Below are positions 5,406 to 47,106 of a DNA stretch of 61,135 nt, in pieces. The stretch is from Escherichia phage Ec1-ASingh. The notes below the pieces were generated by a model. The model saw nothing but the letters and a program-made list of their open reading frames with translations. It was not told the DNA's origin and made no database searches. Made by a program: the position numbers and the translations under genes. Position 1 is the first letter of the stretch; every line of letters begins with the position of its first letter. The DNA is taken from sequence record PQ561393. One strand, given 5' to 3'.

Positions 5406-5999
5406 ATGGCAATATTAGACTGGCCGGAAAATCTTAGGCCTTCTTCAATGAATTGGACGCTTTCATCTAGCGGTTCTATGTTTGAGAGCGTATTCAATAA
5501 ATCAACACAAACAGTCACCTTTCCTGGTTCTAAATGGAAAGTAACTATGTCTTTCCAAGACTTAGACGATTTCGAGTCGCGCCTTCTCGAATCCATCATC
5601 GTAGATCTTGATGGCATGGGTGGGCGAATTCGCCTGGGTGACTTTGGTCGTTGCGGTGTGCCAGCACAGGGCACACCTATAGTTAGCGGCGCTAACCAGA
5701 CAGGGAAAAGCATCCTTACTGCCGGATGGCTGCCGGACCGTATGATTCTTGCCCGCGGGCAATATTTAACAATTGAAGACGAAATGAAAATGGTGCTTAC
5801 GGATGCCTGGTCTGATGAGCAGGGTTTTGCAACCATCCGTATAGGCCCAATGCTTCGCATTTCTCCTGCTGCCGGCGCACCTATTGAAGTTCAAAGCCCG
5901 CGCGGTATTTTCATGCTAACGGAAAACGAGAACGGTGTTGCTCGTAAACCTGCGTTCTCGAATGATTTTAATCTGTCTTTCATGGAGTACATAGAATGA
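5406..5999 (+). CDS. Minor tail protein
   Basis: 197 aa ORF immediately after tape measure; RBS AGGACGA. Confidence 0.5.
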   Translation: MAILDWPENLRPSSMNWTLSSSGSMFESVFNKSTQTVTFPGSKWKVTMSFQDLDDFESRLLESIIVDLDGMGGRIRLGDFGRCGVPAQGTPIVSGANQTGKSILTAGWLPDRMILARGQYLTIEDEMKMVLTDAWSDEQGFATIRIGPMLRISPAAGAPIEVQSPRGIFMLTENENGVARKPAFSNDFNLSFMEYIE

Positions 6000-6580
6000 T
6001 TACCGCAGATTTATCTGAAGAGGTTGCATATTACTTGGCGCAAGGAAACGTAAACCTTGCTCTTGCAACGGAGATTGAATTTAACTCCGGTATATCACGC
6101 TATCACTCTGCCACCGGTCAAATAGAAATTGGCGGGGAGATTTTTTATGGCACAGGGCAGTTAGGCGATTGCTCTGTAATTAATGAAGAAAATAATACCT
6201 CTGACCAACAAATTAACTTGACGCTTAATGGCTTAAATAACGAACTCGTGGCAATAGCTTTAAACGAGAAAGTTGTCGGTCGTCGGGTGACTTGCTACAT
6301 TGTCGTTTTTGACGATGATTATACGGCAATGGCGTATAACATTATTTACGTAGGCAAGATCGCTCAACCTGCTTTAAGCGCGGGTGGTACTTGTGCGATT
6401 TCCTACAATGTGGGTAACATCTTTCAAGAATGGTCAAAAAGTAAACCATACCGCTTCACTGACGAGTCACATGTTAAAGATCATCCAGGCGACAGGATTT
6501 TCAGATATGTTGGCCAAATGTCTGAACGTTCTATTTATTGGGGAAGTAAAAAAGATGCTCCGGGGTTCACATACTCATGA
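5996..6580 (+). CDS. Minor tail protein
   Basis: 194 aa, 4-bp overlap with upstream tail gene. Confidence 0.5.
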   Translation: MITADLSEEVAYYLAQGNVNLALATEIEFNSGISRYHSATGQIEIGGEIFYGTGQLGDCSVINEENNTSDQQINLTLNGLNNELVAIALNEKVVGRRVTCYIVVFDDDYTAMAYNIIYVGKIAQPALSAGGTCAISYNVGNIFQEWSKSKPYRFTDESHVKDHPGDRIFRYVGQMSERSIYWGSKKDAPGFTYS

Positions 6581-34909: not shown

Positions 34910-35233
34910 TTATTCGTCGGACTTATACTGCCTCGCGAATACTCTAGCAGCTTCCAGAACAGGCTCACCATGATGGTCCCACATATCTAACGGTGAGTGC
35001 CCGCAGTTATACCCAGGATCGTGACCCTGCATATTATCTCCACAGCAGCAGACACCCGTTTCAATGTGTGCATGATCCAGCACGTAAAGCAGGTCGCATA
35101 GCTTCTCAATTGCTTCGTTTGCGCGGGCTTGCTCCACCTCTGCTTTATGTTCGAATACCATTGCAACAATGATCATTATAACAACGAACACGATCAAACA
35201 GAAAATCATCCACTCTGCGTATGTACCTGTCAT
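34910..35233 (-). CDS. Membrane-anchored Cys/His-rich protein
   Basis: N-terminal TM helix (WMIFCLIVFVVIMIIVAMVF), then CCCG..H..C cluster. Confidence 0.45.
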   Translation of the reverse strand: MTGTYAEWMIFCLIVFVVIMIIVAMVFEHKAEVEQARANEAIEKLCDLLYVLDHAHIETGVCCCGDNMQGHDPGYNCGHSPLDMWDHHGEPVLEAARVFARQYKSDE

Positions 35234-35562
35234 TTCTGCACCTTAACGCGCACATGGCGACCGATTAATTGGGTGAAGCAACCATTGGGGATTGCCTTAC
35301 AGCTCGCATTGTGCCGCACTGTAAGGCGTACAAGATCGCGCTCAAATATAACGTGGCGCAGTTGTGTCGCAAGGCGCTCGTAGTAACCTGCGTCGCCTAC
35401 GTCGTTGTTACTGATCGCGTCCGCGTACTTTAGCAAGTCTTCCAGGTCGTGGCGGCGTTGAACACTAAGCTCGAACATTGCCATTTCAGGGTCAGGGAAA
35501 TCATTCGCAGGGAAAACCGCCTCATAGACGATCCGCAACGCTGCGACACTTACACGGTTCAT
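35230..35562 (-). CDS. Hypothetical protein
   Basis: 110 aa ORF, first gene downstream of divergent promoter region. Confidence 0.45.
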   Translation of the reverse strand: MNRVSVAALRIVYEAVFPANDFPDPEMAMFELSVQRRHDLEDLLKYADAISNNDVGDAGYYERLATQLRHVIFERDLVRLTVRHNASCKAIPNGCFTQLIGRHVRVKVQK

Positions 35563-35599
35563 TTTACACTCCTACGAATTAATTTAGTTCCGAGTCCTA

Positions 35600-35627
35600 T
35601 TGCAAACGGTCTTACACTTGCTATAAT
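35600..35627 (+). promoter_or_regulatory. Sigma70-like promoter (TTGCAA-N16-TATAAT)
   Basis: Near-consensus -35/-10 with 16-nt spacer, ~35 nt upstream of ATG 35662. Confidence 0.45.
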
Positions 35628-35661
35628 AGCATTATACAAACAAGGTACAGGGGATTACAAA

Positions 35662-35955
35662 ATGAACGCACTGGCAATTAACATCGACAACATCAAACGC
35701 GCAATGAACAAAGACGAACAGTATTCCGCTATTAAGGAGGACGGTTCCTACAAGATCACTTTCGGTGCATACGGACGCCAGATTACCGTTACCGCTACCC
35801 CGCTGACTCGTCCCATCGTAGAGCAGATGGAAGATGGCGATTACCCTGTCAGCTACACAATTGACATCAATAAAGACGATGACTTTTGCACTACCGACTA
35901 TGACACTATGTTTAACGTCGTTGCTAACATCTTTATGTCATACTACCAGGATTAA
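35662..35955 (+). CDS. Hypothetical protein (lone plus-strand gene inside minus-strand block)
   Basis: 97 aa from ATG 35662 with RBS; ORF track's longer version overlaps the minus-strand gene. Confidence 0.5.
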   Translation: MNALAINIDNIKRAMNKDEQYSAIKEDGSYKITFGAYGRQITVTATPLTRPIVEQMEDGDYPVSYTIDINKDDDFCTTDYDTMFNVVANIFMSYYQD

Positions 35956-35975
35956 TAATCCGCAGTAAAGCAAAA

Positions 35976-35996
35976 GGGCGCCGAAGCGCCCTTTTT
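35976..35996. terminator. Bidirectional rho-independent terminator
   Basis: gggcgc-cgaa-gcgccc followed by T5 on plus strand and T-rich on minus strand. Confidence 0.6.
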
Positions 35997-38535
35997 ACAT
36001 GTTTTCAATGAGTTGGTCAACTTTCACAAGATCTATTCTGTAAGCAGTTCCGCTGAATGGTTTAGATAGACCGTCAGTGTAAGGCGGGTTCTGTAGCTCC
36101 GCACGCGATAACGGTTGCATTGCACCTAAGTCAATCACGGATCTTACAGCATTCTCAAACATCTCTTTCTTACTTCTACCCTTACTAAACGCAGCCAGGT
36201 TTATGGTATGCGCACGCAAATCACTTTTAGTAAGAACGAAATTCTGAGTCAATAACGGGTAGTTGGCCTGATCACGCCCGTTACATTTTTCAATCAAACT
36301 TTTAATCTTACTAAGCACTAAGCGGTCACAGTTAATGTCGTCTGACCCGATAAGACCCTGTTTGTGTTTCTTGATAATACGTTCGTTACTGGTGTTAATG
36401 AACGTAGACGCCCATTCGAAGTGACGCATCGTTACTTCAGGATTATAGCAGTTGTCCGCTACAGCTAACAGGCACGCAATTTTAAGGATTTTAAATGCGC
36501 GTCGGTTATGCGCTTGACGAACTACCTCATCCGTTTCAATATTACCGTTTACCCCGTTTAACAGCCTATTAATTTCAACGTCAAGATTATCGTACGCCTC
36601 ACCCGCTTCATGGTCCAGCTTAACCGTACAGGGTTCTGTCCCAGCGTGCAGTTTAACCGCTTGAGTGATAAGCTCCCCTAATCCGCGCAATAACCCTTCA
36701 GGCATGGGCTGAACAGCGTTCTTATTCTCGAGCGGACGCAGTACATCGCAATCCCATATAGTCAAACGAGATATAAACCCGCCTGAAAGCATGTCCTGAG
36801 TAACCGTCGAATAAAACTCGTCAGGTGTACACTCACCCGCAAGACTGTATGCTGCAAGACGCCCACCAACGTGGTTATTCTCTTTGTTAGAGTATTTAAA
36901 CCCGTCTGCACGAGAATAGAATGAACTTTGGTTATACAGTGTCAACATCGCATGTTGCAATTCAGGAGCCTTACCATAACCTGTCGCAATACCTTTAAAA
37001 AAATCTGCAATTTCTTCCATGTAATGCACAAACGACAAACGGTCCATAGCACCGTCCGCAACAATAACGGATTTCATTAATGCTTGCTCGGATCCATATC
37101 TTGCGGTATCAAGGAAACTTCGCGCGCCAAATAGTTGAGTCCCATCCTTACCGCCGAACATTTCTACTGTCTGTAACACGTTCTGGATATTGGAACGGAA
37201 TGCGTCCTTACCTAGCCCCGAACGAGCTACAAGAACAAAATAGTTGTTCAGACCGCCACGTGTGTGGGTGTTCCATGCTTTACCACATACCCCGCTTAAC
37301 AGCGCCAGGGTTGACAGTATCGCAATGTCTTTCACCGGACGTAAGCTAATAGAGAACATGTAACGAGCAAGCTCACCAGCAGCACCTGGAGGCCAGTCAA
37401 GCCCACCGTCCGCTTCGATAGTGTAGTTCCCATCAGTTGCGAGGAATTCGCTCGGTGCAGGTGCAGGGAGAGACGCTTCATATTGCTTTTGCTTCTGTTC
37501 AAGTGTGCGCTGGATGTTAGCCTTCATAATGGCTTCACGTTCCATGTTGGACACTTGCTCGTCCATGCGACGCCGTTTAATCATACGGTCTAGATGATAG
37601 GGCTTCTTCACTTTATCATGGATAGCACGACGTTCGTCAAAGTAGCGGTCGCCCATTTTGGACATATAAAACATGCGACGAACTTGGAAGTTATATTTCG
37701 TGTAGAATGCAATAATATCTACAAGTGCAAATTCTGCTTCGGATTGAGATGGAAACGCGCGTTCACCTATGTCGTAGTTAACGTCCCCGTTAAGGTAACG
37801 CCCGTCCCATAGCTGACGGAATAGATTACCGTTGCTTGCTTCACATGCTTTGATATAGAGGTCTTCGTCTTTGATAGCGTACGGGTCATTTTCATATTCT
37901 TCTTCCGTAAGTTCTACCATCTCGAAGCCATCTAACAATGACACACCATTCATCTGGCTGCGCATGTTGTAAAGCAGTTCCGCGATATACGTTTCGCTTT
38001 CGTGCCCTGGTTTACCTGCAACCTCCAGAGGGCTGATGTTCCAATGGTTGCCGGTGCAAATCATAAAACGGTATTGGGTGTATATTTCAACACCGTCGCG
38101 ACGCTTGCCCTCTTGTGGTAAAGCATAGACCCACAGGTGCAAACCGTTACCGCTACGCGATATTTCAGTATAGCTATGGAAGGATCTTACAATCTGCTCG
38201 TAACGGGCGCCCGCTTTTTGAATAGTTTCAGCATCCCATTCCTGTTTAATATCCATGTCAATGCAACAGAACGGATCGGACGGCATGAGGTAGAACCCAG
38301 CCATCAACGAGTGACCGTTCATGTTATAATATTTAATACACTGTTGAACGCTTTCAAAGTCCATCAAAAGATGAAGGTTAGGTGGGTGTCTTTCGTTACC
38401 GTCCTTGCAGAGCGGCACCATGTTGCCTAGTTCGTTGTCCCAGACATACGGTTGTTTATCATTAGACCCGTTATTCTTAAATCCGCAGACGGCCCACTGT
38501 GGCACATCTTTTATCGCTTGCGGGAACTTGTCCAT
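35995..38535 (-). CDS. DNA primase/helicase (AEP/PrimPol-like N-terminal domain plus P-loop NTPase)
   Basis: SGNGLHLW-type primase-polymerase motif in N-terminal third; Walker-A-like ARSGLGKD in C-terminal half; 846 aa. Confidence 0.7.
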   Translation of the reverse strand: MDKFPQAIKDVPQWAVCGFKNNGSNDKQPYVWDNELGNMVPLCKDGNERHPPNLHLLMDFESVQQCIKYYNMNGHSLMAGFYLMPSDPFCCIDMDIKQEWDAETIQKAGARYEQIVRSFHSYTEISRSGNGLHLWVYALPQEGKRRDGVEIYTQYRFMICTGNHWNISPLEVAGKPGHESETYIAELLYNMRSQMNGVSLLDGFEMVELTEEEYENDPYAIKDEDLYIKACEASNGNLFRQLWDGRYLNGDVNYDIGERAFPSQSEAEFALVDIIAFYTKYNFQVRRMFYMSKMGDRYFDERRAIHDKVKKPYHLDRMIKRRRMDEQVSNMEREAIMKANIQRTLEQKQKQYEASLPAPAPSEFLATDGNYTIEADGGLDWPPGAAGELARYMFSISLRPVKDIAILSTLALLSGVCGKAWNTHTRGGLNNYFVLVARSGLGKDAFRSNIQNVLQTVEMFGGKDGTQLFGARSFLDTARYGSEQALMKSVIVADGAMDRLSFVHYMEEIADFFKGIATGYGKAPELQHAMLTLYNQSSFYSRADGFKYSNKENNHVGGRLAAYSLAGECTPDEFYSTVTQDMLSGGFISRLTIWDCDVLRPLENKNAVQPMPEGLLRGLGELITQAVKLHAGTEPCTVKLDHEAGEAYDNLDVEINRLLNGVNGNIETDEVVRQAHNRRAFKILKIACLLAVADNCYNPEVTMRHFEWASTFINTSNERIIKKHKQGLIGSDDINCDRLVLSKIKSLIEKCNGRDQANYPLLTQNFVLTKSDLRAHTINLAAFSKGRSKKEMFENAVRSVIDLGAMQPLSRAELQNPPYTDGLSKPFSGTAYRIDLVKVDQLIENM

Positions 38536-46338: not shown

Positions 46339-46465
46339 TTTGTAACCCCTTATTTCTGTGTTTTGCTGCTGTGTTTATATAGTAGCAGAACTAGAACTAA
46401 TGTCTAACTTTGTATTGTAAAGTAATGTAAAGGCACTACTACGTTAGGTCCATGGTGTATGGGTG

Positions 46466-46477
46466 CATGGGCCCATG
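46466..46477. repeat. 12-bp perfect palindrome catgggcccatg
   Basis: Self-complementary sequence in G-rich non-coding region. Confidence 0.6.
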
Positions 46478-46486
46478 GAGTGTGGA

Positions 46487-46517
46487 GGGTGTAGGCACGC
46501 TCAGGGTGTAGGTACGC
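46487..46517. repeat. Direct repeat gggtgtagg(c/t)acgc x2
   Basis: 14-bp units at 46487 and 46504. Confidence 0.6.
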
Positions 46518-46519
46518 AA

Positions 46520-46536
46520 GGGGTGGGCAGGGTGGG
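46520..46536 (+). other. Canonical G-quadruplex motif GGGG-T-GGG-CA-GGG-T-GGG
   Basis: Four G3+ tracts with 1-2 nt loops on plus strand within a 120-bp G-rich stretch. Confidence 0.5.
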
Positions 46537-47106
46537 CTCAGGTATGGTGGGGTAGGTATAGCACGCACACGCGTCTAGCATGTTTACGTATTAGATGCAA
46601 CTAATATCTTAAGTCTTCTGTAGCAAAAAGTGCTAAATCGAGATCGGCGCGAATCTATGCTAGGGTACAAGGTAGAGGGTAAAAGCGCCTACAGCGCCTT
46701 ACAGCGCCCTATAGCATAGGTGTATACATGTACAGGACTATGCAACAATCATACCAACATGCGGATGCACTATAGTAGTGCATGTGTGTACACATATCTA
46801 TACAGACAAAGAAAGACAAACAATCTAATCAATGTATGTAACAATAAGCATACTAATTAATAGACAAGCTATCGGTCACACGGCGTGACTATCACCTCAC
46901 CGATGATCAGCGATGCAACTGATAACGCCGCCGCGGCCTCCTGGTAACGTATCTCGCTTTCGTCTTACCAAGATTGAGTCGCCAGTAGGCACCCACACGC
47001 ATCCGTTTCGTCAGTAGACAAACTATCAAGTGGACTGTGCCACCTCACCCATCATAAACTTGCCCGTACCTGTTATTTCCATGTGTAAATACTCGAGAGG
47101 TGTACC

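Follow-up and report, generated by a model that had tools for sequence, protein, structure and literature searches.

The locus described here lies in a 61,135-nucleotide stretch of DNA from Escherichia phage Ec1-ASingh (record PQ561393), which is referred to below as the window. It is built around ORF97, a rightward (plus-strand) gene of 97 codons plus stop (35662–35955; ATG at 35662, TAA at 35953–35955), which is oriented against a replication gene block of ~32 kb. Both flanking genes run leftward, on the minus strand. Convergent with ORF97 is the gene for an 846-residue primase–helicase made of an AEP-type primase and DUF3987 (35995–38535; phrog_3022, E = 5e-177); its divergent partner is the 110-residue "protease" gene (35230–35562; phrog_17339). 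The preliminary description had reported a TTGCAA-N16-TATAAT promoter, a 97-residue ORF and a bidirectional terminator in this segment, and all three were recovered at the same positions. It had also placed the gene in opposition to a minus-strand replication block, which agrees with the annotated relative PP848851, where 53 consecutive early, replication and DNA-modification genes occupy one strand and the ORF97 homologue is the sole reverse-strand CDS among them. The initiation regions of the two divergent genes are near mirror images of each other (GGAGTGTAAAATGAAC, 35557–35572, and GGATTACAAAATGAAC, 35652–35667), and the ORF97 and "protease" proteins both start with Met-Asn.

Over the 2 kb around ORF97, the DNA is 92–93% identical to that of the Klebsiella siphophages vB_Kpn2-P2 and vB_Kpn_K9PH25C2 (~60 kb each), the latter of which is classed in the Queuovirinae. 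The phage carrying ORF97 is a Queuovirinae-type siphophage of the Klebsiella group and belongs to a lytic lineage. The next nearest genera, by identity of the primase–helicase protein, are Nonagvirus (49%), Seuratvirus (~33%) and Nipunavirus (~31%). Comparisons within the Klebsiella group used 10 relatives (the two phages above, from GenBank, plus eight ~60-kb metagenomic contigs), and the promoter was compared with a second set of 11 Nonagvirus loci. A replication origin at the locus was considered and rejected: there are no iterons, and the GC skew has no inflection at 35.6 kb. Elsewhere in the window, ~750 bp of non-coding DNA (46340–47100) separate the early block, which runs leftward, from the rightward late block, containing repeated G-rich motifs resembling GGGTGTAGG (46460–46560) and a run of CGCCTACAGCGCCTTACAGCGCCCTATAGC (~46685–46715). 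This stretch is probably the counterpart of the region with divergent promoters and a terminal repeat described for phage 9g (PMC4276943). No Rfam family matched anywhere in the window.

ORF97 has the sequence characteristics of a real protein-coding gene under purifying selection. Its dN/dS ratio is ~0.22 (Nei–Gojobori, 55 pairs), similar to that of the "protease" gene (0.22) and higher than that of the primase gene (0.07), and falls to about 0.06–0.18 in a conserved β-hairpin. The gene has a Shine–Dalgarno sequence, AGGGGA (35649–35654), 7 nt before the ATG, and no structure is predicted for its 5′ leader (−3 kcal/mol, z +0.5). The sequence GGATTACAAAATG is invariant across the Klebsiella group and is found in the Seuratvirus Skure as well. 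In-frame stops occur 6–11 codons upstream of the ATG at 12 of 14 loci (the window, the 10 relatives and three Nonagvirus), so that a reading of ORF97 as a 168-residue protein started from GTG is wrong and was discarded as an artefact. In the vB_Kpn_K9PH25C2 record (OY979394.1, our L002; 6614–7114), the small gene is annotated as 501 nt from an upstream GTG; judged by the related loci, this model reaches too far, across the promoter and into sequence antisense to the adjacent gene.

The ORF97 alleles have been shuffled independently of the flanking genes. Between the window and the relative at L001, the primase gene has a dN of 0.004 and a dS of 0.23 and the "protease" gene a dN of 0.004, whereas ORF97, with a dN of 0.21 and a dS of 1.13, is far more diverged. 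Primases that are 99% identical can thus be coupled with ORF97 proteins that are 71% identical; conversely, at L016 the ORF97 protein is 91% identical, yet the primase is more distant. No codon window of ORF97 has a meaningful dN/dS above 1, the sole value above 1 being that of the first codon window, where pS is near zero. High synonymous divergence without detectable positive selection points to old allelic diversity moved by recombination, and the pattern looks like an exchange of old alleles rather than an ongoing arms race. Synonymous divergence is only 0.07–0.16 in the first ten or so codons (35662–35690), compared with 0.6–0.8 in the remainder; this could reflect a recombination junction in the conserved promoter region, nucleotide-level constraint from an overlapping leftward promoter (see below), or both. 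Other small genes of the block are mosaic too. A 107-residue gene (34910–35233 in the window) has a dN of 0.46 against vB_Kpn_K9PH25C2, for a primase dN of 0.004, and the relatives do not all have the same genes in the interval from "protease" to RusA.

The segment between the convergent ORF97 and primase–helicase genes (35972–35995) contains a hairpin with a 10-bp stem, set between a left-hand A-run and a right-hand T-run, and its T-tract overlaps the primase stop codon (35995–35997). Folding of the two strands gives −17.9 and −19.1 kcal/mol (z −4.3 and −3.2), and the hairpin is predicted to be stable on both. The hairpin and its A- and T-runs are kept in the relatives, three of nine sequences carrying a compensatory CG-to-GC pair swap. 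Nonagvirus and Seuratvirus have wholly different terminator stems in the same place, and in the record of phage SP8 the depositors marked terminators on each strand at the corresponding position. With its G+C-rich hairpin, A-tract and T-tract between convergent genes, the element qualifies as a predicted bidirectional intrinsic terminator.

At the other end of ORF97, two promoters overlap. The rightward σ70 promoter, P(+) (35600–35627, plus strand), scored 10/12 in the promoter scan and consists of a −35 element TTGCAA (35600–35605), a 16-nt spacer and a −10 element TATAAT (35622–35627) preceded by a TG at −15/−14 (TGcTATAAT). The leftward one, P(−) (35631–35660, minus strand), overlooked in the preliminary description, also scored 10/12, with its −35 element TTGTAA (35660–35655, read leftward) lying between the ribosome-binding site and the ATG of ORF97, an 18-nt spacer and a −10 element TATAAT (35636–35631). 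The two inverted −10 hexamers, 3 bp apart, make up the core TATAAT-AGC-ATTATA (35622–35636). At the usual distance of 7 nt from the −10 element, transcription would start around A35634 for P(+) and around 35624, an A on the leftward strand, for P(−), so that the predicted starts are divergent and ~10 bp apart. In published work, bidirectional promoters are defined by divergent starts 7–25 bp apart, with frequent spacings of 18, 10 and 23 bp (PMC12825309, PMC10268837), and on its predicted start sites the promoter of the ORF97 locus fits the 10-bp class of bidirectional σ70 promoters. Our searches of the literature found no transcript or start-site data for any Queuovirinae phage.

A match to the consensus is in itself no better than chance, and the support for P(+) comes from comparison with relatives. 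The window contains 11 promoter-like sites scoring at least 10/12, which is no enrichment over dinucleotide shuffles (10.5 ± 3.0); the expectation for any given 100-nt stretch of one strand is ~0.01. The exact 15-mer core occurs once in the window, and inverted −10 motifs are not repeated elsewhere in it above chance. Across the 11 Klebsiella-group loci (the window and the 10 relatives), the −35 element TTGCAA and a spacer of exactly 16 nt are invariant while the spacer sequence drifts, and the −10 element is TATAAT in six and TATACT in five, so that the hexamer varies only at a position that is among its least constrained. The 18-nt spacer length of P(−) is likewise fixed, in 11/11 Klebsiella-group and 11/11 Nonagvirus loci; in the Klebsiella group the −35 element of P(−) is invariant too, over spacer sequences that vary. 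Its −10 element is TATAAT, TATAGT or TATACT among the loci compared. All 11 Nonagvirus loci have a counterpart of P(−), TTGTGT-18-TATAAT, despite a primase identity of just 49%. Their rightward elements are TTGCAT, a −35 that matches at only 3/6 positions, and a −10 that can be read either as TATAGT (spacer 16, gap 4) or as TAGTAT (spacer 18, gap 2).

No other leftward promoter-like site was found in the scan from the terminator to the "protease" gene. Nor was a separate operator seen in the intergenic region, in which the conserved sequence consists of the promoter elements only. An A/T-rich tract, GAATTAATTTAGTT (35576–35589, plus strand), read from the sequence at about −58 to −45 of P(+), is a possible UP element of that promoter; it would also be part of the 5′ leader made by leftward transcription, and is A/T-rich in the relatives too. 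Thus, of the autonomous unit proposed in the preliminary description, a protein-coding gene with its own signals stands, at the level of sequence, but the promoter is not private: its other face, P(−), points into the leftward genes.

The predicted ORF97 protein has 97 residues and a mass of 11.1 kDa, and is acidic (pI 4.2, net charge −8). It matches the phrog_17131 profile (E = 7.6e-7, 30.4 bits; residues 10–93 against positions 10–73 of 76), and gp24 of phage 9g matches the same profile with an E value of 1.7e-55. ORF97 is therefore a divergent phrog_17131 protein; this is the family of phage 9g gp24, for which PHROG annotates no function. The members 9g_00024, BRET_58 and SE1 gp55 have in common with ORF97 an N-terminal motif, I-K/R-x-A-M-N-K-x-E, the sequence T-x-D-Y-D-E-M-F at the C-terminal helix, and the same slot and orientation between primase and "protease" genes, with a bidirectional terminator. 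However, they are only 35–38% identical to it and are shorter (74–76 residues), the ~20 extra residues in the middle of ORF97 corresponding to a short helix and a third strand, and ORF97 differs further in its Klebsiella host. The AlphaFold2 model of ORF97 is confident (pLDDT 84.7, pTM 0.74) and shows an α/β arrangement of an N-terminal helix, a β-hairpin, a short helix, a third strand and a C-terminal helix, with just three principal strands packed by two helices. The model matched no known fold, and no enzymatic or DNA-binding signature was found in the protein. The 9g record remarks that gp24 is "similar with transcription elongation factors", a remark that probably originates from a sub-threshold match to KOW6/Spt5. 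We rejected a KOW6/Spt5-type elongation factor, as PF23038 scored 14.7 bits (E = 0.022) against a cut-off of 27 bits and the model lacks the SH3-like barrel of KOW domains.

The preliminary description had made conservation of the ORF a test of its proposal, and a gene of the family occurs in each of the 10 Klebsiella-group relatives as well as in 18 Nonagvirus records. Searching 5.8 billion proteins gave 25 clusters of homologues (58–98% identity); among the 16 clusters whose longest contigs exceed 2 kb, 10 are on phage contigs of ~60 kb and the rest on short fragments. Four further relatives, small and more distant, came from an exhaustive profile search of 1.84 billion representatives, in which giant RTX/Ig-repeat proteins were also returned; we regard these as compositional matches. 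Bacterial genomes yielded no copy other than one on a 10.9-kb contig (NZ_MPDK01000037.1; L025/L018) of a Sulfoacidibacillus thermotolerans assembly. This contig is identical to a Nonagvirus-like viral contig in IMG/VR and is therefore probably coliphage contamination of the assembly. In the literature searched, we found no functional work or transcript data on the ORF97 gene, and publications on Ksap1/Avs2, retron-Eco11, the 9g genome and E. coli HS phages contained nothing about it.

The slot itself extends beyond the family. The Nonagvirus layout is the same: primase, a small reverse gene and then a gene annotated "protease". In the Seuratvirus Skure (L004), the slot gene (5864–6088; QBZ71693, phrog_22269) has the position, orientation and size class of ORF97, shares with it the initiation region GGAGGATTACAAAATG and is likewise followed by a hairpin terminator with A- and T-runs ahead of the primase stop. 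Its product, a 74-residue acidic protein (pI 4.55), is unrelated to ORF97 in sequence (hhalign probability 0.07%). Unlike ORF97, it gives a weak but consistent AP2-like signal (Pfam AP2, E = 0.006; WRI1 in the PDB, E = 0.021), its E values against plant AP2/ERF structures ranging from 0.02 to 1.2. ORF97 has no AP2 match, and an AP2 DNA-binding domain was rejected for it. No consensus-like promoter was found within 250 bp of the Skure slot gene. Between that gene and the next one, on the main strand of Skure (~6230–6300), lies an unannotated 24-codon hydrophobic ORF, MFELLKLFAGAIFVAGYFWFMYIL, with the ribosome-binding site GGAGGGGA. In Nipunavirus, there is no gene in the slot.

We think it somewhat likelier than an even chance that the locus serves as a punctuation point within the leftward early/replication operon, at which a terminator and a bidirectional promoter are combined and ORF97 acts by binding protein. 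The terminator at 35972–35995 would end leftward transcripts where the primase gene finishes, and likewise the rightward transcripts of ORF97, and would shield ORF97 against head-on polymerases leaving the primase gene. About 340 bp beyond it, the bidirectional σ70 promoter, with inverted −10 elements 3 bp apart and a −35 element on each side, could fire in either direction: leftward firing would restart the operon, beginning with the "protease" gene as the first gene of the P(−) transcript and continuing into DNA-metabolism genes, and rightward firing would express ORF97 only. The two binding modes of the polymerase would melt the same ~14 bp, so that only one orientation could be used at a time. 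Opposing polymerases are indeed unable to bind a bidirectional promoter together (PMC12825309, PMC10268837). If the modes of P(+) and P(−) are mutually exclusive in this way, competition potentially couples the expression of ORF97 to that of the downstream operon, although published work on bidirectional promoters indicates that competition matters only at highly active ones.

As for what ORF97 does, the preliminary description had suggested a host-interaction or regulatory function, and such roles can be ranked here as guesses only. Our own guess is that it binds another protein early in infection, most likely a host or host-defence factor. A binder of host or defence proteins holds the largest share of our belief about its role, somewhat short of half, on several grounds: ORF97 is soluble as well as small and acidic, carries neither a catalytic nor a DNA-binding signature, probably owes its expression to a promoter of host type, and does not vary together with the phage partners beside it. 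Regulation of the polymerase or of the promoter switch takes a distinctly smaller but still substantial share, action as a primase accessory a minor one, and something else the remainder. One may extend the punctuation reading further and regard the primase-proximal reverse slot of enterobacterial Queuovirinae as an early-expression socket for interchangeable small acidic effectors, equipped with a strong bidirectional promoter and a terminator, and holding gp24/ORF97 in Nonagvirus and the Klebsiella group and the AP2-like protein in Seuratvirus. ORF97 would then be an inhibitor with a new fold, aimed at a host defence or takeover target and dosed inversely to the middle operon by polymerase competition. 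This extension is speculative, and we hold it to be possible but rather unlikely.

Other readings of the locus must be weighed against the punctuation point. ORF97 might be a transcription regulator that targets RNA polymerase or the bidirectional promoter and times the switch from early to middle expression, for example by favouring leftward firing once it has accumulated. Small acidic phage proteins that bind RNA polymerase, such as T7 Gp2 and T4 AsiA, are well known, and ORF97 is encoded at a regulatory junction, as the divergent partner of the operon that would be restarted. The AP2-like resemblance of the Seuratvirus slot protein and the remark in the 9g record point the same way; however, the former protein is not homologous to ORF97, and the latter has behind it a sub-threshold match and a model without the KOW-like barrel. 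A pI of 4.2 and the lack of a DNA-binding motif argue against DNA binding, and no separate operator was seen. We judge this reading unlikely. An accessory or regulator of the adjacent primase–helicase, comparable to Cnr, which acts on the α protein of satellite phage P4, would account for an adjacency that is conserved across two genera, but ORF97 alleles do not co-vary with the primase, as the pairs with 99% and 71% identity illustrate, and this lack of co-variation disfavours such a role; moreover, Seuratvirus combines a related primase with an unrelated slot gene, and the locus has none of the origin features sought above. We regard it as improbable. Most improbable of all is that transcription to the right is only a side effect of −10 symmetry at a leftward restart promoter and that the ORF matters little. 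Although a symmetric −10 hexamer is often enough to make a promoter bidirectional (PMC10268837), the rightward promoter has an invariant −35 element of its own at a fixed 16-nt spacing, and ORF97 has a Shine–Dalgarno sequence, its own terminator and a dN/dS of 0.22.

The preliminary description had called the organisation moron-like, and a classical moron, that is, a recently acquired, dispensable host-interaction gene dropped with its own promoter and terminator into the replication block, deserves separate attention. At the level of sequence, ORF97 is indeed flanked by a promoter and a terminator, and the slot is cassette-like: its alleles are exchanged independently of the flanks, an unrelated Seuratvirus gene occupies it with the same initiation region, and in Nipunavirus it is empty. 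Against this, the gene is not polymorphic for presence, being fixed in the 10 Klebsiella-group relatives and the 18 Nonagvirus records; the distant Nipunavirus alone lacks it. Nor does ORF97 stand out in base composition (44.9% GC against a block mean of 49.0 ± 3.9%, the 15th percentile, and 46.0% for the primase gene). The relatives belong to the lytic Queuovirinae; the 45 kb of PP848851 that were examined carry no annotated integrase, and phage 9g was found to have none (PMC4276943). The family is absent from bacterial genomes, the probable contaminant aside, and the promoter is shared with core neighbour genes. Because of the lytic lineage, the fixation of the gene, its ordinary GC content and the shared promoter, "moron" is a poor filing for ORF97, and we consider a recent acquisition of that kind decidedly unlikely.

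The punctuation reading overturns no existing ideas, and its importance is modest. The ORF97 family was already catalogued as hypothetical, and bidirectional promoters and bidirectional terminators are known in themselves; what appears to be new is the recognition of their combination here, conserved across two genera and with an unusually strong predicted promoter pair. For annotation, the analysis provides a correction of the gene start, as in the vB_Kpn_K9PH25C2 model. It also supplies a paired promoter and terminator for mapping transcription in a subfamily with uses in therapy research and a place in the BASEL collection. Polymerase competition has so far been shown mainly with engineered "up" mutants, and a natural near-consensus bidirectional promoter offers a phage test case for it. 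Finally, 9g gp24/ORF97 constitutes a small, conserved, fold-orphan and presumably early protein family that is a candidate for anti-defence or host-takeover screens.

Two known systems are instructive for comparison. The moron of lambdoid prophages, as reportedly defined by Juhala and Hendrix, is a gene flanked by its own promoter and terminator. ORF97 resembles it as a promoter–gene–terminator unit of predicted independent transcription in a slot whose content varies between genera, but differs from it in residing in a lytic phage, in being fixed in its lineage, in its ordinary base composition and in sharing its promoter with core genes. The other parallel is with the bidirectional σ70 promoters described by Warman, Grainger and co-workers (PMC12825309, PMC10268837), which have a pseudo-symmetric −10 region shared by both directions and a −35 element on each side. 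In both cases, a shared intergenic site drives, or here, from predicted starts, would drive, two mRNAs, with polymerase binding that is sterically exclusive. However, the E. coli examples studied have low basal activity, whereas both faces of the phage promoter are near-consensus (10/12 each), and the setting here is a lytic phage operon in which the promoter is paired with a terminator.
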